From the NCBI GenBank assembly GCA_905178155.1, contig CAJINV010000009.1, positions 372,001 to 436,000 on the forward strand: a DNA stretch of 64,000 nt. The letters are read 5' to 3'. The position numbers and the translations under genes are program-made. Source of the DNA: Amoebophrya sp. A120 (taxonomy: Eukaryota; Protista; Dinoflagellata). The stretch's first letter is position 1, and the number at the start of each line of letters is the position of its first letter. Shown one piece after another: positions 4,260 to 61,825 of this stretch. Below the pieces are notes generated by a model. The model ran no database searches, was not told where the DNA came from, and saw nothing but the letters and a program-made list of their open reading frames with translations.

Positions 4260-7200
4260 ATGAGAAGTCGAAGCATGAGAGCCGGTATGACGATGAGGAG
4301 ACAACTTCTCCTAGTGGCGGTCATCTGGCTCGCGACATTCCAGCATGATTCTGTCCTTGCGGACCTCCCCGTGCACTGCTTGCTGCAGGACCTTGCTGGC
4401 GAGTGGAAACTGCATTTGACGGAGGAAAAGCCGCGTGACGAGGTGGTGAAACATGGCGAGTCTTTCTGTATGCACCGCGCGCCCAACACAAACCAGGAGA
4501 ACCTGGATCTCTTCGCGAAGAAGCACTGGGCGGAGGAGGTCGGGGAGGCGGCGGAGGAGGCGGTTGTGCATCTAACCCAGGAGCAGTCGGCTGACGTGAC
4601 CACGGACGAGGAGGTTCCGCACTGGCACAAGCTCCTCATCAAAGACGAGGCGGGTTCTATCCAAGGAAAAAAGTGTTACAGTTACACATGTGCTGTAACT
4701 TCAGCATCACAAGTTTTCTCCGCATGACAGAGAAAACTTGCAATGCAAAGATCATAAGGGAAAACAGGAAGGAAACGAGGCTCCAAAGCATTTCCTGCAT
4801 GAGAAAGGTTGTCTGTGTTGCCAGTTTTGCAACACAATGCGTAACTGTAACACTTTTTTCTTCCCATAGGTTCTGGCGTCCTGGGCTCGTGGACGCCGAT
4901 CTACGATGAGGGCATGGACCTGCACTTTGGCAAGAAAAGGCTCTTTGCCTTCTCCGCCTATCAGTGCGCCAGCGCCCAGGCCAGTAGCAGTTCATTTTCA
5001 ACATCGTCCTCCAGTTTTGCACAAGTTCAAATTGCAGCTCCTGCTGGTTCCGATTCCTCCGCTTGCGACAGTTGCGGTTCGGTGAATAATATCACAGATG
5101 AAACTGCAGTGCACATCGCAAAAGAGGAAGATGCTGCAACAAATAAAAATAGTCCCCGTGCAGAAATTGGAATCGACGGAGAGCTGTCAACACCACCTGC
5201 AACGTCGTTCTTGCAACATCAAAGTGCACCATCAGGTGGAGGAACTGAGAATAAAGTGGGAAATAGTGCCGATGACCAAAAAATAACCGAAGAGAGCTTG
5301 TCCTCTGCTCCAACGCAAAAGGAGCTTGTGCACCAGTCCCATTCATCGCGCCCGCTTTACCGCAGCCGCGCGGTTCGGTCCTTTGCATCTGTGAACGGGA
5401 CAACCACGAAGAACCCGTTTCTGGCGCTCATCGAGAAATCGCAAGAGTCGTGCGGGCTGGCTGGCGCCATGATCAACAGCGACGCAACGCTACCACCTGG
5501 CTACGAGTCGCTGTGCGGCCAGACGAACATTGGTTGGTTTTTCAACGAAGAGACCAATCACTACGGGTGCTGGTGGGCGGAGAAGGTAAATCCGGAGCTC
5601 AAGCATTTTGTGTCCTCCTTCGTGTTTCTCCGCAACCACGAACGAAAACGCAGTGTAAACCCGGCGCACCGCATCTTTCGCCGCCACGGCGATCCGCAGG
5701 AGCACGTTCCAAGAACAGAAGCGATGATTAGCGAATCGCAACCACCTCTCCAGATCATGAATACAGCAAGCACGGTGGAACAAGAAGTTCAGGTCGACAA
5801 ATCGCGAACAAGTAGAGCAGCCTTTTCCCTTCCGCACGTTCTGGCCAAGCGATACGTGGCAGCCGTAAACGGATCACGCACTAGTGGCGGCCTCGACGGA
5901 GCGAATTTTGAAAACAGAGTTCAGGAGCAGACGCAGGTGGACAACTCGCGTAGCGGGGCGGAGCGAGCCCGAGAGCGCGTCGACAGCGGAGTTCATGCAG
6001 ATGACGTTTTCAAGAACCTTTACGATACTAGCGAAGAAATGTACAATGCGGCGTCAGAATATCTTTTCGGCAGTCGCGCCGAAAATGACCAAAGTTTGCG
6101 GACCACGCGAACACCATTGTCCTCTACTTCTCAACACGCAGCAGAAAAAATGGCTGAGGGTGCCGAGGAAAAAACTGAAAGTCAGTCCGGAACCACCACC
6201 ACCAATTCAGCGGTCGTAGGCGAACATCCTCCGATAGTGCAGCTGCGTGCTCTCGAAACCACAGCGGCTGCCAAGGTAAAACCGAGCATCACCACGGCGG
6301 GCGCCCAGCAGAGCACAGAGGCGTGCAATTTTGACGCCAGCAACGAAAACCGGGCACTGTTCGAGACGCTGAACAAATTTCGGCAAAATTTTGACTGGCG
6401 CGACCAGTTCGAGGGAAAGTGGGACGTGGCGCCGATCGACCAAGGGAATTGCGGTAGTTGCTACGTCATCGCAGCCACCTACGCGCTCCAGTCGCGCTAC
6501 AATTTAATGCTGCTGAAAGCCGGCGCGGAGCTAGTGGACGAAGATAATGACAGCACTAGCACCTCCGCCGGCAATCTTTTTGGACTCGCAAGTGGCGACT
6601 CTTTGGCGGCACAAGCAGGCGGCGCCATGGCGGGACTTTACGACCGCTTGGTCGGGACCTTCGGAAGTACTAGCAGTAGCAGTGCAACTACATCTTCAAG
6701 TCTTATTTCGACATCGCTCGCAGAAAAGACAAGCGAACAAAAGGGAGCAGTGAAGAACAGTAGAGGAACAGAAATTTTGCGGCGAGAGGAGCAGCACGGT
6801 GACGTCGTCGAGAAAGCACAGATAAAGGTCAACAATGCCGCTGCAAGAAATACGAAGAAAAACAGCACCAGCGCCAGCCAGCTACAACTTGTTCGCCGAG
6901 AGAATCTTGAAGGGGAAAACCACGACCAGCACGATATGAGCATGCAACAGGACCACGAGGAGCATCATGAAGTAGAGGCTGCGACTCAGGTCGGCAGCCG
7001 GAAGAAGCGAACCAAGAAAGTGATTCTGCCGTACCAGGTGCCGCTGAAGTGCAACTTCTACAACCAGGATTGCGACGGTGGCTATCCAGAGCTGGTGGCC
7101 CGGCACTTTGCGGAATTCGGAACCCCGGACGCGTCGCACGAAAACGTGGACTCTACGCTGCCGACCACCGCAGCCCCCGGAGCTGACAGTGTCGACTGCC

Positions 7201-8615
7201 GCGCGATCTTCGGACAAACAAATACCGGTGCTGGGTTGCTTGGCCTTCCTCGCGGATTAATAACCTCGACGTCGTCCCTTCTTGACGAAAAGAAGCAAGG
7301 TGACACTGAAACGACTTTAGCCAATAAAGCGGAAAAATCGAGAGGGAAAGAAGTAGCAGCTGCAGTCGACGCGAAGTACCATAGTAGTAACAGCAGCTCC
7401 TTCGCAGAAAGAGAAACACACCGGGTCGACGAACGGCAACAAATACAGGAAGACATTGACAACCTTTTCTACGCCGCGAAGCAGTCCTACGGGTATGTGG
7501 GCGGGTTCTACGGGAAATGCTCGGAGACGAGATTGATGTACGAAATCCTGCACCACGGCCCGACGCCAGTCGCGGTGGACGCGGGCAGCGGAAACTTTGC
7601 GCAGTACGTGTCGGAAAGCAAAGCGGAAGGCCATCACCTGATGGCCCCGGACGACGTCGGGTTTCTGGAGGTGGTGTACGAAACCAACGACGAAGCGCTC
7701 GACGACAGCATCCGCTTGGTCGCGAACTCCTCGTCGAAGAGTAGCAGTCTGGCGTCGCTCCTTGTGACTAGTATTGCAGCCCAGAGGAGTAACAATGATG
7801 CGGTCTCATCTGTTCCACTTTCCAGCGCCAGGAGCACGACGTTGCGGATCCCCGTGGCAGCTTTGGTCGCGCACCATGCCAAGGCTAGTGAAACACCCGG
7901 CGGAAGCATCGCAGAGACGAACGAGGAGCACCTCTTACAGTTTCTGCTCGACTTGGATATTGCAGGTGGAAGCAGCTTTGCATCCTCTGCAGCTGCTTCC
8001 ACAGCACAGCTCGCGCAGGAGCGAGTAGAGGGCCAGGACGTAGAGCAGCGTCGGAGGGACGTTGCTGGCGACGCTTTTGGAGGTCAGGAAGATCAAGTAC
8101 TAGACCACTCTGTGACAAGAGCCACAGGCATCAAAGCGATCGAAAGCGAGCAAGTCACTGTGAAGCAAGCGAAACAGAAGATTTCTGAAGCGCGGGAGAC
8201 CCTCGCAAGCGGGACTGCCACGGCGGAGGCGAAGAAGGCGTTATTCCAGATTCGGAAACAGACCGAGAGCGCGATCAACTCGTGGGAGTATGTGGACCAC
8301 GCCGTCGTCGCGGTCGGCTGGGGCGAAGACGCGGCAACCGGCAGAAAGTATTGGATCATTCGCAACAGTTGGGGCACCACCTGGGGCCCCAAATCGACCG
8401 GCTACGCCTACCTTCCCCGCGGCGCCAACGAAATGGGCATCGAAACCCAACCGGTTTTCATCGATCCAGATTTCACGCGCGGCAAAGGACTTAAGATCCT
8501 AAAGGAAGATTTGGGGCTGGACGTGTACCCGTACGACGCCGGCAACAAAGCTGGAAGCGAAGGGTCATCAAACGCACACGACCTCCAGTTGCTTTCGGGA
8601 AAAAGGATGAAGTGA
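4260..8615 (+). CDS. Cathepsin C / dipeptidyl aminopeptidase (papain C1A family), 2 exons: 4260-4653, 4870-8615
   Basis: Signal peptide, then exclusion-domain motifs DLPVHCLL..GEW, GSWTPIYDEG (restored across the intron), ESLCGQT..GW and GCWWAEK. Catalytic motifs are DQGNCGSCY, DHAVVAVGWG and YWIIRNSWG. Confidence 0.92.
4654..4869 (+). mobile_element. Introner-like intron (216 nt, GT-AG) with terminal inverted repeats and direct repeat
   Basis: Perfect 20-bp inverted repeat GAAAAAAGTGTTACAGTTAC (4666-4685 / 4841-4860). Element ends are TAT (4658) and ATA (4868), flanked by GGTTC at 4653-4657 and 4869-4873. Removal restores the reading frame (DEAGS-GVLGSWTPIYDEG). Confidence 0.9.
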
Positions 8616-9341
8616 AGGCGAGGAGCCATGAATTTTTCAACAACCGTTGGCATTGAATGTCGAACGAAGGGAACGACAAAGACAACCGCATGCAAAGAAC
8701 AGCAGATGAAATGAGGAACGAGAACGCGTTTCGTTCGCGAGGAAACATCCTTGAATATGATCCCAGTTGCTTGCAATCACAAAGAACTCGCAATCAAACT
8801 GATGGAATAGCATGCCAAGGAACAAGAATTGGACTTAGAATTAGGGTATCTGGAGGACGACGTGCTGTCATGCGCCTGCTTCTGTGCGATGCTTCCGCTT
8901 TGATTCTGATGATGATGAAAGTCTCTAAACTAAAACTCTTTTCGCATTGGTACATTGTTTCTTTTGTGCCACGAATTGGTTTGTGATTTTGCTACTACAG
9001 CCAGATCTTTTTTTCTTGATCCGAAAGACAGGAATAAGACGTAAAGTGTCTGAGAGCATGCATGAGCATCCTGACCCTGAAAAAAGATAAACGAAGTTTA
9101 GCACGATGTGTCTTTGACTTTACTTTGATTTTTTTCCCCCAACCTCATTCTCGCAAGTTCTCTTTTTGCTTCTCTCGTGCCTACTTCGACGCTCCATGCA
9201 GGAGTCTGCTCATTGTCTCAAGAACAGCACTAAGGTGAAAGCAAAATTCAAGGCAGTGTCCCTCGTCGAAATATTTTTTCGTTTTAGCATTTGATTCTAG
9301 TATCTGTATTTGTTCTTGCGGTTTCAGTATTTCAGCCCACG

Positions 9342-12146: not shown

Positions 12147-12811
12147 TAAATACGTTGACATCGATATATTCGATAAAAAACGCATATTCCCGCACTAAGT
12201 AATGTGAGCCGAAGTGATAAGAAAGCAAAAGCATCAATACTTAACATGATCCATGTATCTACAATAGTTCATCTTGCGTTGTCTCCCTGCGACAGGTCCG
12301 CCTACGCGAAGATCACAAGTCCCTCGAGTCACACGTTGCAGAACATGGTTGAAGCGGCGGTCGTCCCGTTTGACGTTTATGTAGATGATCATGATCCCCC
12401 CTACTAGTCCTAAATGCTCCTACCTCAACGGTTTCAAGTGACAAATTGGCAAGGGAATGCAATAGAGATCCTCAAGAAAATGCTGGAGGAGCGGCCTCGC
12501 TTTCCTTTGGATCGGGCGCGGGCCTAAATGAATCATGTGAGGCGGAAATAAAAAATTGTAACTGTAAGCGAAGATGTAGATGGTGACCATATTGCCTTGA
12601 TATTCACATGTTGGAAACAGGACAACGAGCGACAATTACTAGGAGTGATGATGTAGAGGAGGTGAGATGTGTTTTCCTGTTAGAGTTTTGTCAACATTAC
12701 TTTTTTGCGAATTCTATGACATGTTGATCGCCCCGGCCCCTCGGCCCCACTAAGAGAAGCGTGCCAACCGGCGGCAACTACGGGAGGTCTTTCGACGTCA
12801 ACGCTGCCGCC

Positions 12812-15800
12812 ATGAGCGCGTCTGCGATGACTGGGACGGGTTCCTATTCAGCGGCGGACCAGAAGGCGCGCGACATTTTGCGGAAGCACCACGAGGCGCA
12901 ATCATCGGCTTCTTCCTCCGGCAGGAAAATTGATCCGAGTGACGTTCTACAGACACTGCAGCTGCTCCCTTTCCCCCGCAACACGGAGCGGGTGTCCGTG
13001 CGGCCCGAAGGCAAGGACTTCGTCCTCTCCATCAATGTGGGACTGACTACGCTTCGGGGCAAGTTCCCAGTGTTGTCGCAAACGGCGCGGAAGTGTCCGC
13101 ACGTCGCGCAGCTGCTCGCAGAGTTCTGTCCCAGCGCTCCGTTTGGCAGATGCATAGCGGATGATGCTGGTTGTATTCTACCTGACGAGTCAACACCCAC
13201 AGATGCGGTCGCGGTGGGCCATGATGCCACGCCTGCTGCAGCGGAAGATGCTGGGCGGGACACCAAAAATCGGTTCACTTTCACATCCATCACCGTGAAC
13301 AAGAACTACGCCGCAAACGCGCACCGGGACGCCAACCACTACCGGGGAAACGCACGCATCATCGCGGTAGGCGATTTTACCGGAGGTGAGCTCTTCGTCA
13401 CGGATTTCGACAAACGAATCGACATTCGCAATGCCTGGCATGACTTTGACGCGCGCGAGTTGCACGGGACGTTTCCCTTTGATGGGGAAAGGTTCTCCGT
13501 GGTGTACTTCGTTCACACTGCCTCTGTGCCAAAGTTGCTGGGGCAACATCTTCCCTTCAAAGCAGGAGGTATCAGACTGGAGCCTGCGGGTGAAAACGAG
13601 GCGTACGATCGGGAGCTAGAGTCACTGAAGAAGCATTTCGTTGAGGAGTTGCATATGCCGTGGCCAGATTTTCAAACCGATTTTCCGCCAAGTAACTCAT
13701 TGCAGGCAAGTATTGCGGCCTTCGGAGATCGAGGCGTGCCAAGCACGACCAAAGTGGCAAGTGGGCATAGGACAACGATTTTTGACGTTCCAAGCTCCGC
13801 TTGTGCTAGGTCGCAACGTGGGCGGCCCATCGCAGCCATCATTCTGACGAAAAATCAGGCTCCTGGTGCTGCACAATATGCCCCACTTGTGCCGCTCGCC
13901 TGTCAAGCCCTTGGGGCAGTTTTCAAAGTGAAGTGCCGCGAGAGCAATGCGTGGAGCCGCTTGGGGACAAAAACAGGAAGACATCCGGTGCCTGTGGTAT
14001 TTCTCGATCAGCAAAGCATGGTTTCGTTTGCCAAAAGGATGGAGCTATCGTGCGAGGTGTGGGAAGAGATAGAAATAGATGCTGATCTCGAAAGAAAAAG
14101 CGAACGTGCTGCCGCGGCACTTTCGGAAGCGCAGAAAGAAGGAGACGAAATCAGGGGTGATCAGAGGACCACGGGAAAAGAACGGCACCGAACGCTAGCC
14201 CGCGGGCTCGTTTGCATATCTGACGACTCGGACTGTTATGGTCACAGCTTGTCGAAGAAGCAGAGAACCGCGGATCTGCCACCACTCGTTCGGCACAGGT
14301 TTGGAATCGACTTGGAAAAATCTGCTACCGACTTGTCGCCGAGCTTGCACCGAAAGTTGAAAAAAGAAAGCTCCAGGACGATTTCATCTTGCACCCCCTC
14401 GACCACAGATGACGACGAGACGAGCGAGACCAACACCAAACCGGAGCTCGGCGGTCGCGGAAGGGCTGAATTTGCCGCACATGAGCCGACCTCAGAAATA
14501 GAAGAAGAAGATTGCAAGCCGAATCGAGTAAGGCCGCCTGCGCTTGCCCCACAGCTCGGTGTTTGGTTTCCCTTCTCAGGAACACCTCGCGCTCCCCTGG
14601 AGCGTCGTGTTTCCTCTACGCAAGCGTCAAACCTCCCCCACGAATCGTGTTGGCAGCTTTTGCAACTCGTGGAGCCCCCGTGCTTTTCGTCGAGGGAAAG
14701 CAACCGGAGTCTTGCAGATCGCGCACTTATGAGTAGATCCTGTTCCACACCAGCGCGGCGAGGCTCGACTCGTCGCGCCCCACTGCCGGAACCACTGGCA
14801 CGCCTCATGCTGAACGCAGCCAAGGTGTTGCCCACAAGCATGGTTTTGGATCCTTGCGCAGGCGAGGGCACTATTGGGCGACTGGTTGCCGGCGGTTGTC
14901 TTGGGAATTGCTTCTCCGCGGATGTTGTCTCAGACGGGGCAAAATATGCATCTTCGGCTTCATCATCTGCGGTACTAGCGGAAGAAACCCGCGGTCCTTG
15001 CGAATTTGTGACCGCCAACCTGTTCGCCGCGCCGTTCCGACTTGTCGGCCAGTACGACGCTGTAGTCTGTGACCCGCCGTTCGGACGCCGAGAACCCGTG
15101 GTAACTCTCGCACATGGAGGGGCTTCCGCTGCCGGCACAAACCCCAATCCTTCGCCCGCGGTTCTTGGCATCTATGATAATGCCTTTCTGCCGGAGCTTT
15201 TTCGACTCTCCGCACGTGCGCTGAAGCTTCGAGGCAGATTGGTTTTTCTCTATCCGCATTACCCGAAAAGTGAGGAGAAGGACAAGGACGAGACATCCCG
15301 AGGAACTAGCTGGACACCCGAAGACATGCTCGCTTTGGGCAACGCAGCCATAAAAGAAGACAAACATCAGAGCGCCGGCGTCGAAGATCCTCGAACAGAG
15401 GACAGCGCTAACTGCAGATGGCACCTGGTCGGCACCGCCGAGCAGGAGTGGGCGAAAAGCTCGGGGCACGTCATGGTGCGAAGACTGGTAGTGCTGGAAA
15501 AGCAACTCGAGAAGCGAGACGAGCGCAGCCGGCGCACAAAGGCGACGAACAGAATTGTTGAGCGTTCTGATGAACCGTGCGCTGCCACACCGGCCTCCGA
15601 GTCTTCGTGGTCCCAGCGGCTGCTGCACGACATAGCAGCACCCCACTCTGAAGTTGACAGCAACCCAGCTGCATCGTTTCTTCTTGACGCAGCGACGGAG
15701 CGCCGCATCCGCCTGGCCGTCGAGGATCAATTGCAAAAGCAAGAGGCGCGCGGGCCGCGGAAGGTGTTTCAGGGTTTGAAGGTCACGCCCGAGCCCCAGC

Positions 15801-17044
15801 CCCGCGTCAGCATTCCCGACTTTCTGCGGGAGGAGCGAACGCTGTGCCTCAAGGAGAAAACGGTGGAAACGATCGCACAGGTGTTGCTTCGCGAGGTACA
15901 GGACGTAGTTCTGGGGCCTGTTGCTGCTGCCGCCTACCGTGTCGCAAAACCCGATACCAGCATCGAAGCCGGTTTTCGTGATGTGTTTTTCCCGCGCGCT
16001 GCTGGCCGAGGGACGGCACGACCCTCAGCTCCGAATTGGGACCACCTGAAGCCGGGCCGCATTCAAAGTTTGATTCGTCGATGTCCGGAGTTCTGTGCAC
16101 GCTATAAGGCACTTATCGCCGAGGAGGTCGGGCCAAAGCTGTTGCAGGACGCTTTGGGGAAAAACCCGCATTTGGGAGATCTTCGCGGGGAAAACGAAAC
16201 GCAGAAGCTGGTGCTGCTGTACCAGTTTCCGCCTACCCTGCGCGTGAAGCAGGCCCTCCCCGCAAGCCTTTCCTCAAGCTCGGAGGCAGCAGGCGCTGCT
16301 AGTGCTACTGCGACGGCTGAGAAAAACCAGCAGGGGAACACCGTAACGACCGATGGTGGAAACGCAGTTGCCGGCACGGCCCTCCAAACCCAAACGCCTT
16401 GCTCCATTGCTCAAGTTCACGCGGACGACATATACGGGCATCAACCGGGAGAAATCAACTTCTGGGTACCGCTGGTGCCAATTGGTCATGTGTTACAACA
16501 AGAGCCGGAGGAGAATAATGTCATGACCTCTCAACCACAACCAATCGCGGATGAGGACACTGCAAGTTGTGCCAGCAGTTCAGCTAATGTGGGAGGACCC
16601 CGCCCCGCAACAGAGCCTGTTCTGATGAACACGCTGTGGTCCGAAAGCGTTCCGAACAAGGCGGACTGGCACCCGTTCGCACCGCTGCGAGTGGGCGAGT
16701 ACAAGCGATTTTGGGGCAGCAAGGTCCGCCACTTTGCCTGTACGAGCACCGCAGTAACGGTGGCAGCTGCTACTGTGTCAGGTTTCACCAGCACTGGAGA
16801 AGCAACGGGATCCAGTGGAACAACCGCCAAAGTGGCTACATGTGCGGAAGAAAACGAGATAAAAACCCGGGTGAGTCTCGATTTCCGCTTGTGTCTACAA
16901 GAGCAATTCGACGAAGAGTGGGAGCTCCCCGGAGTCGTCTACAGCCATGAAAGAAGAGAGATGGAATTCGAATTTCACGCCGGTAGGGCGACTGCTGTTC
17001 TTCGTGATACTGAGACAACTCCTGTGCTCCCAGACAGCACATAG
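12812..17044 (+). CDS. Multidomain protein: 2OG-Fe(II) oxygenase (TET/JBP-like) + Trm11/UPF0020-like SAM amino-methyltransferase + second 2OG-Fe(II) oxygenase (StrG/PhyH-like)
   Basis: Domain 1: FTSITVNKNY..HRD (13322)..GDFTGGEL..H (13463)..GERFSVVYF. Domain 2: PLPEPLARLMLNAA..VLDPCAGEGTI (14846)..YDAVVCDPPFGRRE (15071)..GRLVFLYP. Domain 3: YQFPPTLRV..HADDIYGHQPGEINFWVPL (16418)..NTLWSES..VRH (16730)..TRVSLDFR (16868). All lie in one ORF. Confidence 0.8.
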   Translation: MSASAMTGTGSYSAADQKARDILRKHHEAQSSASSSGRKIDPSDVLQTLQLLPFPRNTERVSVRPEGKDFVLSINVGLTTLRGKFPVLSQTARKCPHVAQLLAEFCPSAPFGRCIADDAGCILPDESTPTDAVAVGHDATPAAAEDAGRDTKNRFTFTSITVNKNYAANAHRDANHYRGNARIIAVGDFTGGELFVTDFDKRIDIRNAWHDFDARELHGTFPFDGERFSVVYFVHTASVPKLLGQHLPFKAGGIRLEPAGENEAYDRELESLKKHFVEELHMPWPDFQTDFPPSNSLQASIAAFGDRGVPSTTKVASGHRTTIFDVPSSACARSQRGRPIAAIILTKNQAPGAAQYAPLVPLACQALGAVFKVKCRESNAWSRLGTKTGRHPVPVVFLDQQSMVSFAKRMELSCEVWEEIEIDADLERKSERAAAALSEAQKEGDEIRGDQRTTGKERHRTLARGLVCISDDSDCYGHSLSKKQRTADLPPLVRHRFGIDLEKSATDLSPSLHRKLKKESSRTISSCTPSTTDDDETSETNTKPELGGRGRAEFAAHEPTSEIEEEDCKPNRVRPPALAPQLGVWFPFSGTPRAPLERRVSSTQASNLPHESCWQLLQLVEPPCFSSRESNRSLADRALMSRSCSTPARRGSTRRAPLPEPLARLMLNAAKVLPTSMVLDPCAGEGTIGRLVAGGCLGNCFSADVVSDGAKYASSASSSAVLAEETRGPCEFVTANLFAAPFRLVGQYDAVVCDPPFGRREPVVTLAHGGASAAGTNPNPSPAVLGIYDNAFLPELFRLSARALKLRGRLVFLYPHYPKSEEKDKDETSRGTSWTPEDMLALGNAAIKEDKHQSAGVEDPRTEDSANCRWHLVGTAEQEWAKSSGHVMVRRLVVLEKQLEKRDERSRRTKATNRIVERSDEPCAATPASESSWSQRLLHDIAAPHSEVDSNPAASFLLDAATERRIRLAVEDQLQKQEARGPRKVFQGLKVTPEPQPRVSIPDFLREERTLCLKEKTVETIAQVLLREVQDVVLGPVAAAAYRVAKPDTSIEAGFRDVFFPRAAGRGTARPSAPNWDHLKPGRIQSLIRRCPEFCARYKALIAEEVGPKLLQDALGKNPHLGDLRGENETQKLVLLYQFPPTLRVKQALPASLSSSSEAAGAASATATAEKNQQGNTVTTDGGNAVAGTALQTQTPCSIAQVHADDIYGHQPGEINFWVPLVPIGHVLQQEPEENNVMTSQPQPIADEDTASCASSSANVGGPRPATEPVLMNTLWSESVPNKADWHPFAPLRVGEYKRFWGSKVRHFACTSTAVTVAAATVSGFTSTGEATGSSGTTAKVATCAEENEIKTRVSLDFRLCLQEQFDEEWELPGVVYSHERREMEFEFHAGRATAVLRDTETTPVLPDST

Positions 17045-17588
17045 GAAAAAAAAAAAGATGCGAACATCTACATTTTCTCAACAGCGACGCAAATACACAA
17101 AGGACAAAGTAAGGAGAAGATGTAGTGCAAAGTAGCGCCTTGATTTGAATTTGTTCGTGAACAAAGTGAACCTTATAACGTTTGTTGAGTTCTTTCGCTC
17201 CACATCGGTCAGGAAAAGGCGCCGGCGCACTTCGTTTTTGTGGTCTATTCCTATTCGTCTAGGTGTACCTACCGACATCGTGATCGTGGCTTGGGACCCT
17301 TTCGTTGTCGCAAACTAATTCATTGGTCTCAGCATTTTCGTATTCGTTGCGGTGAATCGCATTCGAAATGATAGTCTGTCAATCGTCCTCACTCTCGACG
17401 CTCGTGTAAGTAGTCTAAACAGGAATCGGAAATGTTTTTTTTTAGAATGAAAATGCAATGTGAATGTCGACTTGGTCCTCCAACAGATGTACTAGCTAGC
17501 ACTACGGTCTGGGGCAACCATGCCTATTGAAAGTAGTCACTAGAACAATCGCTATCTGCTGTACTAAGAGACGTGTGTTATCAACAAC

Positions 17589-18788
17589 ATGAGGTCTATT
17601 TTGGCAGGCTTCCTAGCCAGTGCGACTGCTGTTTCCACAACGGTCTCCAGCGCGAAGGGGGTTAACAGCGAGAATTCACACAGTATCACGGGGACAGCCG
17701 ATGCCGGGGTTGTTTCTGCTGACGAATCGTCGCAAGCGTCAACCGCCGCTGAAGGGGAGAGCAGGTATAGTAGGCTCTAGCAGCCGCTCCCGCTTGCTGC
17801 AACTTTCGATGATTTCCGTTTTAGCCAAAAAGATAGCTATCAAGAGGCGAATACGATTGCTCTCACGCAAGTTGTCATCAGTTCAAGCCCTCGAAATAAA
17901 GCACGATATTAAATGAGCAGGACTACATGCAAATTCTACATCAGCTTTCTTCACCGTGTCCTGTCGGAGTGGGTCCCGCCGTGGGTCTCCAATCCCAACG
18001 TTCCAAACCCGAGCCAATTGAAGCGCAGCAAAGCTCAGCAGCTGCAGCTCACGATGCTCAAAGTGGATTCCGATTCCCCGGATTCGCAGCACCCCGGGTC
18101 ACCTGTCTCGGGTGTCCCTCCGATGCCCGATGCGAACGCGCTCCCGTACGACCACGTTGACGTCCTGCAGCAAACAGGGCAGCAGCACCGGGATAATGCC
18201 GAGCAGGGGAATAAAGTGGACCTGCCGCAAATTTCACTTTCGGCTTCCTCGCCCACGTCGTCGGGCACGTCCCCTCAGATGTTGCCCACGACTGTGAACG
18301 TGACGCTCGACTACCTCCGCGAACAGTACGAAATCGAAGCGGAGAGTCGTTTGCACGGGGTCAAGCACAACTTCGAAGTGCCGTTACTTGCCTCGGACGA
18401 CGACGTGCGGAGCGCGGCCGTTGCCACCGAGGCCGGGGCCGGGTTGTTGGCGGCCACGAAATCTGCCAGTGACGACAATTTCTCGAACACCTACAACCTG
18501 TTGGACTACGACAAAGTGCTGGCCTTCCTCTCCCTGAAGTCGTTCGAAGACTTCGCGGCGCTGTTCTTCTACCTCGCCGCCGCTTTCACCCTGTACTACT
18601 GGTGCTGGTACCGCGGAAAATCCGCAGGAACCGGCTCCGGAGCTGCGACGGTGATGGGGGGCATGATGAGCACAAACAAGAAGCAACTGCAGATGACGAA
18701 CCGCAAGCTGTTCCGGGGGGAGCCGGAAGATCTTGACTCGGTGAAAATCAAGAAGTACGCAAACGACGACTTCGACGACGATTTGTAA
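17589..18788 (+). CDS. Hypothetical single-pass membrane protein, 2 exons: 17589-17764, 17921-18788
   Basis: N-terminal signal-like peptide. An in-frame GT-AG intron at 17765-17920 (156 nt) is flanked by the direct repeat GAGCAGG. C-terminal TM segment FAALFFYLAAAFTLYYWCWY. Confidence 0.72.
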
Positions 18789-33425: not shown

Positions 33426-35234
33426 TCATAACCGCACGGCTTGACGAACGCTCTTTCGTCTTCGGTACGACGATAATCGAAGAAGAAGGCGCCGAAGGGA
33501 AAAAAGCGCGCGTTGCCGTAGCAGTTCGCCCGAGTCGTCGCCGTCTTCGGATTCGTCGTCCAGCGACTCGTAACTAAGCGAAGGGATGACTTGTACGTGA
33601 ATACTCGCCAGCTCGCGGTCGTTCGGCCGTTTTGTTGGGTTCGCTTCTCCCAAGCCCCTTCGCCCCGTCCGAGAGCCCTGCCGCGTTGCAGCTCGCCAGC
33701 TATGGACGTCGGGGGCTTGGATGTCTTCGCCAAATCAAAGGGCCGCACACTAGTGCAACGCCGCCGGGCAGCAACGTGGACGATTGAAGGCGCTCGCTTT
33801 CGCCGGTGATCCCGGTAGTTTAGCCGGAGAAGAGTGCGCAGCGAGCCTCCAGATGGAAGCTATCCAGTGCTGGCGCCCCGCTTACTAAAAACCACCCGGG
33901 GCAGGTGCGGGCGGGAGGGCGGGCCCCGCGCAGGCGCCCGCGGCTGCTCTTCGCCGGTGCGTGATTTTACATGATTGCCGCCGCCCTCTGGAGGTAGGTT
34001 TTGCGGCCGTGGCCTCTGGGGATAGTGGCAGGCAAGCCCCCGCCCGGCGACGGTGCCGCGCTTCGTCTCAACTCCGCACCGCGCGCATTTCGGGGCCGGC
34101 GCCGAAGCGGGCAGGCAGCGAGCGTGGCGCTTGCGCTTAGCGTTCAGGGGCGGGCGCGCCGGCATTCGTCGAGAACAGCAGCGCGGGAACCTGATGACGA
34201 CAGCGCAAGCTGCTGCGGTGTTGGGCAATCTTCCCAAGCCCGTCAGCGCAAGCCGGGCCGCCTTGTGTGTGAACGCCCCCGCGGCATGTCCTCCGTTAAT
34301 CCGCGGCAGAGCGAGGAGCGCCGGGGATACTATGCAGGCGCGTCGACTACCTTCAGCCGCGAGGGGTTCAACTTCGACCCGGCGGGCGACGTGTTGGCCT
34401 GGATCTTGTCGGGGGCGGCGGGCTCGCTTGTTTCGCCCCCCCCCCGCCCGTCGCGCGAAGCAGCTAGCATCCGGCTGGCAGGCGGCGCCGGGTTTGGCGG
34501 TGGTGCTAGCTTGGCGCCCAAGCGTCTCCTTTACGCAAGGCGCGCGCGAGGCGTAGTAGTCCGCCCCCCGTGATGTTTTTGCATTGCGCCCGCGCGCCGC
34601 CGCCGCCGCGGGCTGGTAGATTCGGCCTTCGTCTTGTTTTGCGAGCAGGCGGGGCCTTCCTCCGCGCCCGGCCCGCCGCGTGCCCGGCGGGCCGGGGCCT
34701 TCCTCCCACGCAGGCACGCTAGAGGCCGGCGCCCGCGCGCCATGATGGAAGACACGCGCCCAGCGCGGGTTTGTTTCTTTGGTTGCGCCGGGGCCCTGCG
34801 TCTTAGTTTTGTGAGCAGAGGGGGCATGCTTGAATCTAGAATCAAACAAGCTGTGCGCGATTTTCCTTCGGCAGTGGAAATTCCAAGTCCAAGAAGTCTC
34901 GAGTGCGATAGTAAATCAATTTGCTGCTGTGCTGGATGAGCATGCGCAAACAGCGTGACGACATACGATGCGAGTTACTAGCAGGAGCTAGCATGCCGGC
35001 CCCTCATTTTGTTCCTTCGATAGTCTTTTTTTGAACAAGCTGGATGGTGTTGGTGGTTTAGGAAACAATAAACAAAGGAGCAACTACCGTGTCGGGATCA
35101 TGTTGTTTTTTGTTGATACAGTGTCTGTTTGTATGATGAACGGGGCTGCGAAACACTGTTCACATTCACTGAGAGTGCCGTATCTACGTGTGCCGTAATC
35201 GGACTATCGGAAAGGGCTCGCCCGATCATCGGCT

Positions 35235-35291
35235 CTGCACTTCTGATGGTGCAGCACCAACAACCACCAATACTGCACTTCTGATGGTGCA
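35235..35291. repeat. 19-bp direct repeat, 2 copies, each internally palindromic
   Basis: CTGCACTTCTGATGGTGCA at 35235-35253 and 35273-35291. TGCAC/GTGCA arms lie within each unit. Confidence 0.85.
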
Positions 35292-35594
35292 CGTGAGGCA
35301 GGGCCGCCAGTGCGGCCGGACTTATGTTTTTCTTTCTTATACTCCCAAGCGGTGACTGCAGCACCAGGAGCCTGAGCAATCCGAAAGGGTTAGAGCTCAG
35401 CAAAACATCTCTCACACAATGAGCCGCGAGCCGACCCGGCCCCCGCAAGCGGGAACCCTAACTATGGTTTTTAAGTTATTAGGCGGACTACCAGCGGAGG
35501 GACACCGAATTTTGTTTAGAGACCAAGCACGAGATGGATCTATACACCCGGATTAGCAGACCGAGCACTACAACTTAATGGAAGGCGTGCTTTG

Positions 35595-38500: not shown

Positions 38501-38975
38501 AGATCGAGAATATCACACGAAATAAAAACTGTATCTGTGTGGGTTTCAACTTGCACCGCGGAAGTTTCATCTTGATGCAATGGCCATTTCCTGTCATGCG
38601 CGGCATTGTGCACCTGCACATGCAAGAGCAAAAAAGTCTGGCCGGCGTTTTTTCGTTCGTCCGTGCTTGGGCGTCCCTACGACGCATCACCGCATCCCCT
38701 TGTTGCGCTGTGCAAAAGAACCGAAGAAAACGTAGTTTTGCATTTGCGTTGCTTCTTGAAGAAAAAACTCACTGGTACAAAGTTTTCACTCGATAGAAAA
38801 CGACCGTGCAGACGACGATGGGTCCTCCGTTTCGTCGGTGGCAATCGGTGGCGGCGGGAAAAAGATGCTGCGAAAGCAACCCTCCGCCCTGGAAGAGTTT
38901 GCCTCGCAGTACGCTCGTGCGGCGAAGTCGCGCCAGACGCTCACCAAATTGATGAAAAAGGTGAAGAGGAGGTGA
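35595..38975 (+). CDS. Hypothetical low-complexity/coiled-coil protein, 3 exons: 35595-35633, 35713-~38506, ~38797-38975
   Basis: A GTAAGT...TAG intron at 35634-35712 joins MVSADKNRARCIY to QERLKQIQE. Removing a 290-nt introner-like intron gives EREIENDRADDDGSS...LMKKVKRR*. Confidence 0.65.
38507..38796 (+). mobile_element. Introner-like non-canonical intron (290 nt)
   Basis: Ends are TATC (38511) and GATA (38795), flanked by GAGAA (38506-38510) and GAAAA (38796-38800). The inverted repeats are degenerate. Removal of 290 nt opens a coding-like 59-codon final exon. Confidence 0.65.
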
Positions 38976-39786: not shown

Positions 39787-42700
39787 ATGAAGAATTCGCT
39801 TGCTCTCGACACGTCCTCCTACGATGCTTTTTGGCAACAGTTTATCACGCGGCTATGGCTAGCGTTTTTGGAGTCGTTTTTGTTGGAGGAAAACTTCAAT
39901 GGGCTGGAAAAGCTGAGCAAGCAACAAGCCGAGTTTTTTGCGCACCTGATTCGATATGGCAAGGAGATTCTGGACTTCCTCTATGCTCGCGACAGAGGCG
40001 AAGATGTTGAGGCTGAGCCTGAAGAAGGCAAGGAGAAAAAAGAAAACGAACCACAACAAGAGCACCAGAAAAGAAGTGCGGACCTCAATATACCCGAACC
40101 ATCTTTTTCACCACCCCGCCTGCCCTTTCCGCCTCCCTGCCCACCAGAGCCGCCGTATAGCGAACTGCAACGATTTCTGGACACATGCCTACCTCCTGTG
40201 TCGACCGTGGGACGGAAAAACACGGGCACCGCGGCGTCACACCCGGATAACTTGATGACGAGCGCCTCCTCAGGAGATGTCGCGAGCAGTTTCTCAAGAT
40301 CAACGAGTGAACAACACCAGTTCACGCCCATCAAGCGCACGGAAAGCACGTCGACTAAGACGCCCCTATACGCTCACGAAAATGTTGAGAGTGCTGGGAC
40401 AGTGGCACGTACCGAAGTTTCACTTTTGGCTCCATCTGGAGGCGTTCTTACGTCTTCCTCTAGCGGCAAAACCATCGGCATAGCCCAAGCCCAACAGGGT
40501 CCTCACCAGCAGCAATTTTCGCTCAGCCACAATGTCATGCCTGGCTCAACAGTATCGACGCCACAACTCTCGCCGCCGCCACCACCACCGCCACCACCGC
40601 CGCTCACTGTAGGCGGAACGGGAGCTCCTACCCGTTACAGTGGCGAGACGGGCCCTGTCCCACCCGATTTGCCGGAAGACACCACCTCCACCGCATCATC
40701 TGGCGCTCCCTGGCAAGGTCCCGTGTCGCGGCTGTTCTATTGTGAGCTGCTGTTCTACTTGCGGACGCTTTTCGCACCTTCAGCAACTACATCCGGTGGC
40801 AGTTCCTCCGGTACGAGCACGGCTACCTCCAGCGGTAAGAGTTCCCCAAACGACGAGCGCGACCTCCCCCCCGAGGTGACGTCGACCGCGACCACGCCTG
40901 TTCACCTTTCCGGCGTGTTGAATACCAGCAGCACCAATTATCTCCGAGGACCGAGCGAGGAAAAGGAAAGCACTTGTTGTTCTGCGAAAAACAGTGCCGC
41001 GGCTAGTGCTGCAGCTGCTCCGTCGAAGTGGAAGATGGTGCCCGTGGTCAACATCCTCCTGTCGCTGGTTTGCTTCCCCGGTTTTGGCCACTACTTGCTC
41101 CACTGTGTGATCGCGCGCCAGACCCACTTCTTGGACCACGCAGACAATCTGATTCGCGGAGTGCATATCGAATGTGAATTTCATCTCGCTCACCGTAGTC
41201 GAAGGCACTTACGCATGGAGGACATGACGACATTTTTGCATGACAATGGCATTAGTACGACAAGAAGAACTCCGCTCCCTTCAATGACCATTCCACACGC
41301 AAAAAGGGTGCCCCTTTAAGAAGCAGACAGGTTGCCAAAACTTTTCGTGACACTGGTGTGCGGTAGGTTTCTTTGTATCGCATACTGCAGCAGATTCTAA
41401 CCGATGTGTATGAACTCGAGGACGAAGGAGCGGCGCCGGTAGAAGAGGACCAGAGACATGACCTCCGGCGGACGAAGAGCCGGAGCGGGGGGGAGGAGGG
41501 TAATACTGGCGGTTCGATGTTCAGCCCGCTTTTGAAGAACCATTACCGCAATCAGACCGGCACCGCGACGGGCATCTTCTTTCTCGTGTTACAGTCGCTC
41601 TTCCACTACCTGAACGCATCCGTGGTGCACAAGGAAATCAAGAGGCAGGCGAGAAGGAAACAGCAACTGGACGAACTGTTGGCGAACGGGAACGAGCAGA
41701 AGGATGCAAGAACGAGAAATATTAACCTCCCGACAGAGCCTGAGATTCTTGGTCACTGTTTGGACGGTCGGACGCGAGCAGGAAGTTACTCCTCGGCCCA
41801 CGAACACCTTTCGTCAGACAGCGAGGTACTCCGATTTCGCCTAGAGTTGCAAGGCTGTGCTCGCAAGGATTTTTTTTCTTCCTATTGTCGAAAATCTGTA
41901 GGAATCAAAATCAATAATTGATTCATCCGACTCGATTTCAATCAACATGTGCGACGTTATTTTGCTTTCGCAACATAAATTTAGGTTGTTTTGCATCCCG
42001 GCACTGGCGGCAGAACCGTGAGTACACACAGTACCACTACCACGGCGCCAACAACATCTAGAAGTCTCGTCGAAATGGTGTCTTCTTCGTCTCCCAGAAA
42101 GCATTCTCAGAACCTGAGCTCAGGAGCATCGGCATCCGCAGCGTATCAGCGACAGCATCTCCGGCTGCCACAGGATGACCTTTACCAGCCCTCGCAGCAG
42201 CCGCACTGCAAAAATTCCCTGTACCAAAGCTTCGACAGTGTTTGGCAGAATCTGTTCCTGCTTTCCTCGTTTCCCTTTTTCGGGAAGAAAGACCAGCCGC
42301 TAGATTATTTCCTCAAAGCGTTACGAGACACGCTACCGGTGGGAAACTACCCCGCAGCAGAAAATCTCTTGGGCTTCGGCGGAAGCAGTGGGTCTGCACC
42401 GACGTCGTCATTCCAAAATGACGGACCAGATCTATTTCACGGCCACGACAATGGGACATGGCTATTGAGCAACCGAGATCCACCAGGTGCAGCTGCGCAC
42501 GTGGCAGGAGCTGCTGCTGCATTCGGCCACGGTGGCGAACTTGTCGGTCATGAGCAACCCCCCAGGCGCAGGAGCTCCATACACCAGCAAACTCCGCAGT
42601 TCGATCGGTATGCATTCGCGAAGCAGCAAATTGGGGACGTGTTTCTACCGGAAGAAGAGGACAACATCCCAGTACGCGTGCGCCACCAGCGGCTCCAGGA

Positions 42701-44900
42701 CTTCATCCGCATCGTTCGGCGCGTATTGGAGGCAATTTTCTTTCATCGAGCGTTGCGGACAAGGAGAGAGTTGCAACAAGGAAATGCTGCTGGCGCGTCA
42801 ACTACATCCTCTTCGGCGGGAAACAACGCCGGAACTGCAGGCGATTCGTCCACCACCACTGGCGGACTTGGTTATCAGCAAGGACGAGCCAGTGGCATCC
42901 AGCGAAAATCTTCCAAGGTGCTTGGCAGCTCCGGCACGAGCACCACCGCCTCGCCGAGCACAACACCGACTGGCTCGGCCGCTTCCTCGTTACGCCTGCC
43001 TTTTTCTGGAAGTGCGCCGGCCGCCAGCAGCAGCAGTATTTTGGTACAGAACGCGCGACTGTCCAACGCCCTATTCCCGATGTACGAGGAGGTTGCGGCC
43101 CTGCTGGAGGCGAACCAGACGTCGGGCGGGTTGTGGACCATCACCGGACTCGCGGTGAATGTGTACCGCACCGCCGAGATCGGCAGGGTCAACCAGGTTC
43201 CCGTCCACAGCTACAACACGAGCGGAACAACGTCCTCCAGCGCTGGTGCACAAAATCATGCAGCGACAATCAAGAAGCCGCTGACCGAGCTGCGCGCGGG
43301 GGACCGCGTCCGATTCCTCAAGTGGTGCGACAATGCGGACCCGTTCCTCGAAGATTTGCGAATCATGCGGGAATTGAGGCAAACGCAACCAAACTGGGGC
43401 ACCAGCGCAGCTACAGCTTCTGGGGGCGCGTCGACCTCGAACACACCAGTGAGCACGGGAACTGCAGCCTCTAGTGCCGAAACAGCGGCGAGGATGAGCA
43501 CGCCAATCGCGCCGGCGGTAGTTGCAGGAGGACCGCAGCTTCTTGCAGCTTCTTCTTCACAGGTGTCATGGGGCCGCGCAGCTGGTGCTGCGCAGCCCGA
43601 GCCCTACAGGCGTGAGAATCTGGTGTCTATGCTAGCGTGTCTGCCCTCGGCGCGCATCGTTTGCGTCGACCAGGGCGTCGTAGGCTGGATTCGTGTGGCG
43701 GACTTGGTGTCTTCGTTTGAGGTACAATCCGCAGGGGGCAGTAGTACAACAACTTCCTCGCAACAGCACCTTTCACATCTTCCTGGAGCAGCCTCTACGT
43801 CGAGCACGCCGAACGCCTCGCCCACCACGACGACATCGGCCTCTGGCGCCGCAGCTAGTGGTACCAACAGCGGCGCACCTCCAAGGGGTAAGGTGCGTCT
43901 GCAGTTGCAGGTGCGAGATGAGCACTTGTTCGAGCATGTGGTGGATGTGAGTCAGGGAAGCGCGGCGGGCGGTTCTGCTTCTGCGCAGGCGCAACGAATG
44001 ACGCAGGGGCAATCAGCGCTACGCCGTGCGCGGATGTTCATGGAGGAGAGCACACTGCTGCGTATTTTGCGCGTGTACCTCGAGGATATCATCCTGGACG
44101 ATATCAAGGGCGAAGCCGAGGGGTTGAAGTACGAATTGTCGGAGCTGACTTTCCCATCGCTCAACACGACGCGGTGTTTTTGCCACCTGAAGAGCTGTGC
44201 CAATCCACCCGCCGCGAGCGCGACCGCGCAGCTGCAGCGCACAATCACCCTGGAAAACGAGCACGACGTCAACAGCAAACAGGGAACGACAACCACCAAA
44301 TACTTTTCGATCACGGTGAAGAACCTCGGACTGGTGATGCACCACAAGTGGAAGGCGTCGGGCACGTTGCTGCGGCTAGAGGGTGAAAATATCGTCGACG
44401 TCAAAGACAGCCGCGCTGAGTTTGTCTTCGCCGTTTCGGTTCGAGAGGGCGCAGACGGCGGAACAGATGGAACTGCGTGCGCAGATGTAGACTCAAAGAG
44501 AGTAGACGATGTTGAAAAAGCATCAGGCGGAGGCGGCGCAACTTCTTCATCCAGGCCGAATAGTAATGCGTTGAAAGTGCGCATAGCGTCAGCTTCAATT
44601 GAGCTGGGTGAGTTGGAGCTCGCCATTGCTAACCACGACGATGCGGAGAACAAAAACTTCTTCAACCAGGCCTGGACAACGCTGGTTTTTGGCACGCTCC
44701 GGAGGGTCCTCCAGCGGGCCTTAGCGGGACAGGCGATGCGCGAGCGGTTGCAATCGCTGTTGTGCACCCTGCTACAGGAAAAAGCCTTCGACCCGCTGGA
44801 CTCCGCAACAAGTTTGCAACGCGTGATACCCGGAAAGCTGGCCACAACGTTCCTGTGCTATCTCCACAAAAACTTACCGCCCCAGGGAGTGCAGCTGTAG
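39787..44900 (+). CDS. Large hypothetical protein with split SH3-like segment and C-terminal TULIP (BPI/LBP-like) domain, 3 exons: 39787-41160, 41367-41825, 41985-44900
   Basis: Phase-0 GT-AG introns at 41161-41366 and 41826-41984 join three ORFs. SH3-like pieces: LRAGDRVRFL and VCVDQGVVGWIRVADL. C-terminal beta-rich pattern IILDDIKGE..KYELSEL..ITVKNLGL..KWKA..LELAI followed by an amphipathic helix. The start codon is uncertain. Confidence 0.55.
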
Positions 44901-45313
44901 AAGATGAGAAGCGCTATATGCTTTTTGTGTGAACATGAAGAAACTACTTCTACGGAGTCAGAGTCTCTTGTCTTCATGTGTGGAAGAGAGTACTTTTTCA
45001 AAAACGAACGACTTGGCGTGCACATACGAGTTTTTCCCGCAGAGACACACTTACTTTGATTTCCCCGGACTATTTTATCGTTCTTCTTCTGCAACAAGAG
45101 CTGCAACTTCGGTGAAAAAGTAGAAGCAATGAGGAACAATCGCACATGCCTCGTCGTTTTCGTATGTAGTGAAATTCGACAAATAAAGAGAAGCGTCGAC
45201 AAATCGAGAAAAGGCCAAAATGAGTTGAAGCATCAAAAATCCGCCACTCTTCATCTAATCCTGTGAATAGCATCGTAGGTCCGAAATCGTTTCAAGAGTT
45301 ATCGATTAATATC

Positions 45314-45332
45314 TGTGAAGGATTCCTTCACA
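45314..45332. repeat. Perfect intergenic palindrome
   Basis: TGTGAAGGA-T-TCCTTCACA, further bracketed by ATCGATT (45301) and AATCGAT (45334). Confidence 0.8.
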
Positions 45333-45458
45333 AAATCGATCTGAAAGCAGAAGCAGGTAGAGCAGCTATGATTTCTTCTACTAGAAGGGTGCATGAATAG
45401 GAATACCAAGACGTGCCATTTTGTCGACTATTGCTAGCCATTGGAACTTCTTGAGAAG

Positions 45459-47657
45459 ATGCCGGCCCACCTCTGGTCCCACATGCTGGACGATGTGGAC
45501 TTTTGGTCGGGATTCAGTGGTGGCGGTCACGCGCACGCGGCTGCATCGACTACAAGCAGCAAGCTAATAACGAGTTTTTCCTCTGCTCCCACACAGGCCA
45601 CTCATGATTCCTCCTCTCATCATCCTCACGACGCAGGAGCCACACAAGCCTCGGCAGTCGGCACAAGCAGTAGTTCAAGTTCAAGTTCCTCGGCAAGTAG
45701 CAGCTCCTCCTCCTCTACCGCCCCCAGCAGCAGTGCGAAAGTGGTTGAGGAGCAACTACCGCGCCACCCGGAGATCCGCGTGGACATGCTGAACAACAAC
45801 AATTCGCAGTACTACGGGGATTTCATGCTGGGCACGCCACCGCAGCCGTTCACGGCGGTGATGGACACGGGCAGTGGGCTGATCTGGGTTCCGGGCAAGA
45901 AGTGCGCGACCGACGTGTGCGCGGACCACCACCAGTATGACGAGGCGGCGAGCAGTACGAAGCGGGTGATCCCGTCGGAAGTGGGGGCCACGACGGTGAT
46001 CCACTACGGCACCGGGTCTGTACACTACCAGCAGTCGGAAGACACGCTGCGGCTGTGCGACTCCAAGCTGAACCCGAACTGCCGCGACCTCGGAAAGAAC
46101 GCCCTGCACATTCCCGCACAAACCATGGGGACCAGCTTGACGCAAACGTCGGAGCCCTTCAAGTGGTTGCCTTTCGACGGGATCTTTGGTTTGGCGCCGT
46201 CTGCCTCGAAGGGGTCCGCCTTGCACTCGATCCGGAAGGCAAAAGTTCTCGCGCACAACATGCTGGGGTAAGATGCAGTTTGAAGTAGGCTACTAGTTCT
46301 ACTTCCTCAAACGCAGCGGCAGCTTCTTTTACGTCTGTCCCAGGCGATTTGATGATTATTTCTTTGTTGTTTGAGTTTTATCGCAGAAAACTCGACAGTG
46401 CCCAGACAGTTTCTCGCCCACCTAGAGGCGAGCGCACATGTTAGTTTTATCGTTTCATAAATCATAAAAATTATTCAGGTGCTATTTGAGCGAGGACACG
46501 CACCGGACGGGGAGTCTTTCGTTCGGCGGGATCGAGCCGCAGTACATCGCGAAGGGGCACCCTCTGTACTGGCACACGACGACGCACCCGAAGGAGTGGC
46601 AGGTCGCGATCGCCGACGTGGAGGTGAACGGGTATGCGGTTCTCAAACGTTACATTCTCAACTGTTACATGAATTTGTGATGCAAAAATGGCAAAAGTGA
46701 AATTGATACATACCGGGGATCTTGTGCGTCTTGCATGACTACAGATTTGGTGCCGATTATGAGCCTGTCTGGCCCTCTGAGAATTTGTCATGCGAAGCAG
46801 CTTGATGGCCATGGCGTCGATTCTAAAGGCAGTTTTGCATTGCAAACCATCCATGTAACAGATGAGAGTGTAACGTTTGAGAGCGCCATAACGGGGAGAA
46901 GCAGCACGCGTGCGACAGCTACCCGAACAAGGAGTGTCTGGCGGTGGTGGACACGGGATCTTCGTTGATCACGGGCCCGGCGGAGGAGATGGACCCGCTG
47001 CTGCAGAAGATGCAGCTGGACACGAGTTGCAAAAGGCTGGACAAGATGCCCACCGTGAACCTGTTGTTGAAATCCGACGACGGCCTGATCCGCTACCCGC
47101 TCACCCCGCAGGAGTACACCCTGGCGGACATGAACGAGCAGACGGAGCAGCCGGAGTGCGAGCTGGGCTTCGGCTCGATGGACGTGCCGGGCAAGAAGTG
47201 GGTGCTCGGGGACACCTTCCTCCGCCGCTACTACAGCATCTACGACGACGACAAGGGTCGGGTCGGGTTCGTGCGCTCGGTGCACCCCGGCGAAGTGGCA
47301 GCGCCGGAGCCGACGAATCTGGTGGTGGGCGCGAAAGAAGCGGACGCCAAAGCCTTTCCCCGTGTCGCGGTGTCTAGCTTCTTCGCCGCAGGTTGCACGG
47401 GGGCCGCTGGCGGAGTGGCGACAGCGGCGAGCTGGCTCGGGCTCTCCGGGTTTGTGGCCGCGACTTCGGAAGTGAAACAGCCGCCTCACGGAGTAGAACG
47501 TAAGCATCGAGGCTCAACAAGTCGAAATAAATCCTCACCGCCTTATTTCGGCGTCCAGTGGTGTCACGAGCACTTCAATCATGGAGATTCTGGGCTTGTT
47601 GTGAGGAGATCCTCGGTGTGTATGCCAGGAACTCTCCAGCATGGTGCGTTCTTTTGA
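45459..47657 (+). CDS. A1-family aspartic protease (pepsin/cathepsin D/plasmepsin-like), 3 exons: 45459-46267, 46479-46631, 46895-47657
   Basis: NSQYYGDFMLGTPPQPFTAVMDTGSGLIWVP, HYGTG, PFDGIFGLA, GSLSFGG, WQV, AVVDTGSSLITGP and WVLGDTFLRRYYSIYD. Intron 1 is GT-AG at 46268-46478. The true start may lie further upstream. Confidence 0.93.
46632..46894 (+). mobile_element. Introner-like non-canonical intron (263 nt, GT...GG) with ~39-bp terminal inverted repeats
   Basis: TATGCGGTTCTCAAACGTTACATTCTCAACTGTTACATG (46633-46671) matches the reverse complement of 46852-46890 (TATGGCGCTCTCAAACGTTACACTCTCATCTGTTACATG). ACGGG is duplicated at 46628-46632 and 46891-46895. Removal gives DVEVNGEKQHAC..CLAVVDTG. 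Confidence 0.88.
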
Positions 47658-61733: not shown

Positions 61734-61825
61734 GCAGAAATTCGGCATCTTCCCCGGGTCTGAAATGGCCGATTTTGGTGGCCCAGCAGGGTTCGCGGGT
61801 TTGCGGTTTTCCACATACCTTCCTG

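Follow-up and report, generated by a model that had tools for sequence, protein, structure and literature searches.

Introner elements of Amoebophrya sp. A120 with TAT...ATA ends, a 5-bp target-site duplication and a common internal motif: a likely case for one shared transposase

We analysed a stretch of 64,000 nucleotides (nt) from Amoebophrya sp. A120 (assembly GCA_905178155.1, contig CAJINV010000009.1, positions 372,001 to 436,000 of the forward strand), hereafter the window, in which four short elements with TAT...ATA ends, E1 to E4, interrupt reading frames. Considering all the evidence jointly, it is probable that such elements, bounded by terminal inverted repeats (TIRs), insert into exons, duplicate 5 base pairs (bp) of the target, are removed together with one copy of this duplication and are spread in trans by one DDE transposase. 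The elements themselves are already known as A120 introners, and their TAT end, their short repeats and the idea of a hairpin have been published (PMC7789003). What we add is modest, namely the strictness of the 5-bp target-site duplication (TSD) across families, a common internal motif, an explanation of the splice spectrum and spliced copies that are poor in hairpin structure.

Four elements in the window and their removal from transcripts

By sequence inspection, E1 consists of a left duplication GGTTC (4653..4657, + strand), a body of 211 nt (4658..4868, no strand assigned, as for all four bodies) and a right duplication GGTTC (4869..4873, +). Its TIR is approximately 32 nt long (4658-4689 and 4837-4868), and copies of the internal motif described below lie at 4704 and 4722. 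The element interrupts the exclusion domain of a cathepsin C/dipeptidyl-peptidase-like gene (4209..8615, +), with Pfam domain PF08773 matched at its positions 1-64 and 61-102 on either side. E3 has the same layout, with ACGGG (46628..46632, +), a body of 258 nt (46633..46890), a 42-nt TIR (46633-46674 and 46849-46890), the motif at 46676 and 46786 and again ACGGG (46891..46895, +), and it lies in a pepsin-like aspartic protease gene (45438..47657, +) that matches PF00026 on both sides of the element. E2 comprises GAGAA (38506..38510, +), a decayed body of 285 nt (38511..38795) from the TIR family of E1, with the motif at 38592, and GAAAA (38796..38800, +), which agrees with the left copy at 4/5 positions; its host gene encodes P0001 (37114..38975, +; 523 amino acids), a protein without a Pfam match whose annotation requires a 290-nt excision. 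For these three elements the coordinates, repeats and body lengths given in the initial annotation are correct, and excising the element plus one repeat indeed brings each of the three genes back into frame. A fourth element that it lacked, E4 (GTGCA/TAT...ATA/CTGCA, 41161..41389; body 41166-41384, 219 nt; motif at 41238), has a decayed TIR and a 4/5 duplication, and removal of 224 nt restores the reading frame.

The common geometry that the initial annotation ascribed to the three introns is far above shuffled expectation for E1 and E3, whereas that of E2 taken alone, with its 4/5 repeat and TIR score of 4, falls within chance. E3 (42 nt at 86%) and E1 (33 nt at 85%) rank first and second by length among the 362 inverted repeats of the window, and each scores 17 in an anchored TIR test, in which 40 shuffles gave a mean of 0.025 matches at 12 or above. 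At the score of E2, 22 such matches were observed versus 32 in shuffles, and a gapped test gave p=0.049. The inverted repeats at both ends are thereby strong in E1 and E3, marginal in E2 and decayed in E4, and the direct repeats of E1, E2, E3 and E4 (5/5, 4/5, 5/5 and 4/5) lie within the known introner range of 3–5 nt. We accepted E2 despite its chance-level geometry because of the annotated protein and a family match: a protein 100% identical to the E2 host product is the annotated P0001 of Amoebophrya sp. A120, which can be produced only by the 290-nt excision, and a hidden Markov model (HMM) of the E1 family, made from other sequences, spans E2 end to end (E 0.0015). The upstream frame runs through E2 to a TAG at the end of the element.

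The TIR sequences had also been described as differing among the three elements, which is true of E3 compared to E1 and E2. Clustering and family HMMs, however, place E1 and E2 in one broad TIR family, and the three TIR types are therefore really two. The terminal pattern of TAT, about 7 variable nt and a run of As is exact at both ends of E1 and at the right end of E2, while the A-run at the end of E3 begins after 9 nt, not ~7. A 15-nt repeat lies within the TIR at E3-family ends; the hexamer GTTACA is restricted to particular families and absent from E2.

Evidence for removal comes mainly from X3, X4 and X5, contig sets from a single sample that is only guessed to be RNA (no set is recorded as such); ordinary GT-AG introns are skipped in X3 and retained in X1. 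Two ordinary GT-AG introns of the window, at 46268-46478 within the E3 host gene and at 17765-17944, are skipped in X3 contigs. In contigs of this probable RNA run E1 and E3 are exactly removed with one repeat copy: X3 and X5, but not the X4 and X1 listings, contain a joint 4652>4869 that skips 216 nt, and the length of one X3 contig, 2414 nt, is that of the messenger RNA with a 263-nt skip at E3 (980+154+1280). The junctions at the repeats that had been proposed are exact for these two elements, and for E2 they come from the annotation and one contig end only. That X3 contig departs from the genome at 38508 and continues for 60 more letters, as expected of a 290-nt skip placed as far left as possible, with the left G kept; indirectly, this would put the 5' cut at most 2 nt from TAT and rule out an ATA/G acceptor. 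For E4, the X3 bin depths (6.36, 6.30 and 7.22) match a 224-nt skip exactly in all three bins, and the two informative bins disagree with 221, 227 or no skip. An element-plus-2 register (xT...Ax, with an extra codon) was excluded for E1, E3 and E4 by the skips of 216, 263 and 224 nt. An ortholog from another Amoebophrya, P0002, aligns without a gap over the E1 junction at a skip of 216 and with gaps at 213 or 219, with close alignment scores (318 at 216 versus 315 and 318 at 213 and 219). Two raw RNA runs, X9 and X10, placed 2 reads each on the window, too few to inform.

Element families, the 5-bp duplication and a shared internal motif

The summed bin depths in X1 reach 8158 for E1 and 29896 for E3, compared to a background of ~42, and in their bins mixed loose ends coincide with the boundaries at TAT/ATA (for E3 at 46633 and 46890). 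Such sums do not give copy numbers, but values this high imply many further copies of both elements. The bins of E2 and E4 stay at 42.4 in X1, with no further copy at 90% likeness, which makes these two singletons in the terms of PMC7789003, and the multi-copy nature expected of all three original elements hence extends to E1 and E3 and not, at this likeness, to E2. For a wider view we used 72 loci (431 kilobases, kb) drawn from one related public assembly by the E3 end pattern, which matched 0 viral contigs. These loci carry the E1 family at 79–85% identity and the E3 family at 68–79%; no gene of the window is among them, and only element sequence is common to both.

A scan of the loci that was agnostic of the ends found TAT...ATA at the ends of 168 of 253 strong inverted repeats. 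Of the remaining 85, 61 adjoin or overlap one of the called TAT elements, and the majority of the final 24 resemble such elements in damaged form. Within the 168, a perfect 5-bp repeat flanks 117, as opposed to 4, 1, 0, 0, 1 and 0 perfect repeats at 3, 4, 6, 7, 8 and 9 bp. The directed scan for N5-TAT...ATA-N5, with clustering, yielded 320 elements in 26 clusters, 8 of which have at least 4 members. A perfect 5-bp TSD was present in 238/320 elements and a 4/5 match in 53/320, while lengths of 3, 4, 6, 7, 8 and 9 gave 3, 1, 0, 0, 1 and 0, i.e. chance level; excluding the E3 family, by which the loci had been searched, left 182/250 with a perfect 5-bp TSD. There were 178 distinct sequences among the 238 perfect TSDs, with a flat composition and no target preference, and insertions relative to the host strand were divided 13:15 in family 1, 12:9 in family 0 and 7:7 in family 3. 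Across 291 elements the frequency of A at end positions 11–15 was 0.62–0.92. Short, non-coding, with TIRs, a constant-length TSD and either orientation, these elements have the features of miniature inverted-repeat transposable elements (MITEs).

A constant TSD, TIRs and insertion in both orientations are the footprint of cut-and-paste DNA transposition. Because this footprint is the one seen here, spread as RNA by reverse splicing is very improbable, even considering that the elements are spliced and that no transposase is known in A120 (PMC7789003).

E1, E2 and E3 have two 9-mers in common (P 0.0003 by shuffles; 0.0008 against genomic triplets), one of which generalises to TGT[ACG]ATGC. This motif occurs in 284 of the 291 elements with a 4–5/5 repeat versus 60/319 flanks; elements that were not called probably lie in some of these flanks. 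Its density is 12.9 per kb in elements, 1.1 elsewhere in the loci and 0.09 in the window outside E1–E3. It is retained in at least 96% of members in 7/8 families, often pointing inward 30–50 nt from the element ends, and family HMMs match each other's interiors (best E ~1e-9). Subterminal repeats that are bound by the transposase occur in other MITEs, and for this reason TGT[ACG]ATGC may be regarded as a putative transposase binding site; alternatively, it could act in splicing. We found no earlier report of the motif in the literature searched, with most subscription journals outside coverage, and the available text of PMC7789003 does not describe it, though Figs S19–S25 of that paper may show the motif or the repeat lengths. 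The sequence AGTTTTGCA, which E1–E3 have in common close to their 3' end in the sense direction, occurs in 0–16% of members per family and was not retained as a splicing signal.

It is likely that many families are spread by one shared transposase, because the exact 5-bp footprint and one internal motif are common to them. Separate transposases for each family, with ends and motif in common through an old ancestor or through later selection for splicing, would fit the sharp divergence of TIRs between families past about position 15, the homologous family interiors, which are themselves evidence of ancestry, and the several introner classes reported for A120 (PMC12130899). Such a scenario appears unlikely to us, given the single TSD length and terminal consensus across families and the near-universal motif.

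Other repeats differ from this pattern. At L069:2532-2756 in the sampled loci lies a strong inverted-repeat element of 225 nt from a different family, with neither TAT ends nor the motif. The window holds a larger TIR element of ~1.4 kb (60645-62058). Its 21-nt arms are perfect (TGGTAACC...), its middle is an N gap, and GC-rich palindromes as well as a 52-nt tandem repeat lie within it; its ends are other than TAT, and its flanks are AATCT/AATAT (4/5). An intergenic repeat with short direct repeats at 35209-35532 has other copies in X1 (bin depth 177 versus 42), and a perfect 21-bp palindrome with a 1-nt spacer lies between genes at 3175-3217.

Splice signals and the hairpin

The initial annotation had suggested that the hairpin rather than GT-AG sets the splice junctions. 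As to GT-AG, a frame-keeping GT-AG register was available in 6 of 104 strand-called elements versus 4.2 expected, and 32/104 had neither GT nor AG. A canonical GT-AG reading is possible for E1, and E3 has no such register; since registers occur near chance and E3 is skipped exactly without one, GT-AG is not required. When an element-plus-5 excision was slid within the TSD and the most GT-AG-like register picked, the resulting motifs correlated with the published spectrum at r 0.92–0.98 over six rule/sample combinations. The reference consisted of donor and acceptor counts of A120 family 2 (9716 introns; PMC12130899 Dataset S2), to which no single fixed register fits at both ends. As sliding reproduces this spectrum, TSD ambiguity largely accounts for the diversity of splice motifs, with either the aligner or the spliceosome choosing.

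If the spliceosome did the choosing, an ordinary but relaxed machinery might simply take the most GT-AG-like register inside the duplication, with no special signal. It would predict the same spectrum as the best-match rule; E1 offers GT-AG and E3 a GTATG donor, and A120 possesses nearly all spliceosome proteins as well as U2/U4/U5/U6, and the U1 small nuclear RNA is undetected (PMC7789003). We find this account improbable, in view of TSDs that show no selection for GT or AG, of an ATA/G acceptor in E2 that is apparently unused, judging indirectly from the contig that leaves at 38508, and of junctions at element plus 5 in all of E1–E4.

The hairpin half of the suggestion fared less well. A TIR stem-loop that alone joins the exon ends and sets the junction would suit the undetected U1; moreover, a stem is independent of orientation, matching both orientations observed, and E1 and E3 are predicted to fold into long end-to-end stems (z -6.7 and -5.7). 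In contrast, no end-to-end stem is predicted for E2 (z -0.5, 0.1 expected end-to-end pairs) or E4 (z +0.9), although the annotation splices out E2 and the depths at E4 fit the 224-nt skip; because both thus appear to be spliced at the repeat, the hairpin as the sole signal is doubtful. A weak duplex of the E2 ends is possible (-19.5 kcal/mol, p 0.013), which a protein might stabilise. Going by these predicted folds, the stem is probably helpful and not the sole signal. Under the explanation that we prefer, splicing would use orientation-independent signals borne by the element, namely its ends, the motif and the stem where intact, and not GT-AG; any exon position would therefore be tolerated, with the protein unchanged.

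The putative transposase and related systems

In the proposed mechanism, one cut-and-paste DDE transposase would act in trans on short non-coding elements, recognise the end TAT[CG]N6-7AAA together with inward TGT[ACG]ATGC sites 30–50 nt inside, and cut its target with a 5-nt stagger. Our best guess is an integrase-like enzyme related to those of Ginger2, IS3EU or GingerRoot, because of the features of one published A120 family and the TA..TA termini of IS3EU/GingerRoot. That family, number 38, is described as 'Ginger; 5-bp TSD, TA/TA termini', with TIRs and Copia/Gypsy-like homology of its open reading frame (ORF) (PMC12130899). At ~808 bp and 5 copies it differs from the ORF-less window elements of 211–285 nt, with which it was compared by description only. 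The signature is noted there for family 38 only, and most of the other 57 families are listed as TIR DNA of unknown family.

The suggestion of several non-autonomous families mobilised by one transposase type is borne out as regards the TIR families (eight with multiple members), the TAT/ATA ends and the 5-bp duplication; the transposase itself was not found. Six long TAT...ATA candidates of 631–3868 nt were present in the loci, of which two were rejected as chance pairs spanning several elements. The other four (L021:3208-4022, L045:848-2041, L070:4583-5678 and L004:3862-4492) have element ends around unrelated middles and a perfect 5-bp TSD, and the ORFs of the first three show neither a transposase domain nor a coding signal. 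The L021 element, 815 nt long with an E3-type TIR, is near family 38 (808 bp; PMC12130899) in size; the sole match of its ORF is to a spurious ORF in a further copy of the repeat. Neither the 431 kb of loci nor the window showed an autonomous partner with the same ends.

Several points weigh against one transposase and splicing at the duplication. No Pfam transposase match was obtained in the 15 ORFs of the three long copies or in the 81 long ORFs scanned out of 244 in the loci, and an integrase-motif search over all six frames gave spurious matches only. The loci were selected by the E3 TIR from a single assembly of unconfirmed identity, which a search for homologs did not link to A120, and no DNA-level empty site was seen in them on comparison with the window. 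The contigs indicating splicing (X3–X5) all derive from one sample with a guessed RNA status. PMC7789003 found no transposase in A120 and rejected a general transposase-mediated mobilisation. Published TSDs of 58 A120 families are 2–11 bp or none, with 5 bp in 7/58, and family 65 is Mutator-like with a TSD of 8–9 bp (both PMC12130899 Dataset S2); not every A120 introner is therefore of the TAT/5-bp type. Finally, IS3EU and GingerRoot, whose TA..TA termini our elements match, usually have a 6-bp TSD (PMC10045372), a length found in 0/320 elements, and because this test failed we do not assign the elements to them.

Ginger2/TDD elements have TGT...ACA termini; the ends here are TAT...ATA, and we do not assign the elements to this group. 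Their 4–5-bp TSD is matched, and like IS3EU/GingerRoot they use integrase-like DDE enzymes (PMC10045372). No earlier link between IS3EU/GingerRoot and these introners was found in the literature searched, which left most subscription journals outside coverage. In agreement with the initial annotation, introners with inverted and short direct repeats and non-canonical sites are known from Amoebophrya: the inverted repeats of A120 introners start with TAT, ~7 variable nt and then 3 or more As, with direct repeats of 3–5 nt (a 5-bp example is in the legend of Fig. S19) and a proposed hairpin (PMC7789003). Like our elements, they are repeated, non-coding and mostly non-GT-AG, but that paper calls their repeats variable in length and position, whereas we find a fixed 5-bp TSD. 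The nonconventional introns of euglenids, an unrelated lineage, similarly have non-canonical junctions, TIR pairing and TSD-like repeats, and differ by a CAG/CTG end consensus at fixed positions (PMC11282704).

Elsewhere in the window, long reading frames from 4209 on are almost all on the + strand (4200-60026), similar to the co-oriented gene blocks reported for Amoebophrya (PMC7789003). Among them, a 1438-codon ORF (12728-17044) has a methyltransferase-like match (PF01170) and a weak Tet_JBP match below cut-off (E 1.2e-4).

For tens of thousands of non-canonical Amoebophrya introns, which spread with no known transposase and are spliced with no detected U1, the fixed TSD and the pan-family motif provide a precise template for finding the missing enzyme as well as a candidate site for its binding. 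Tentatively, A120 introners may be mostly one undescribed superfamily of integrase-type MITEs with TAT...ATA ends, a strict 5-bp TSD and TGT[ACG]ATGC as binding sites, in which TSD ambiguity hides one fixed register, read from the ends and motif of the element, and transposase signals are reused as a splicing code that needs neither GT-AG, U1 nor a hairpin. Single-mismatch TSDs, present in about 1 in 6 elements, could reveal the true splice register in existing RNA sequencing data, and a fixed register, if found, would turn the apparent jumble of splice motifs into a testable rule.

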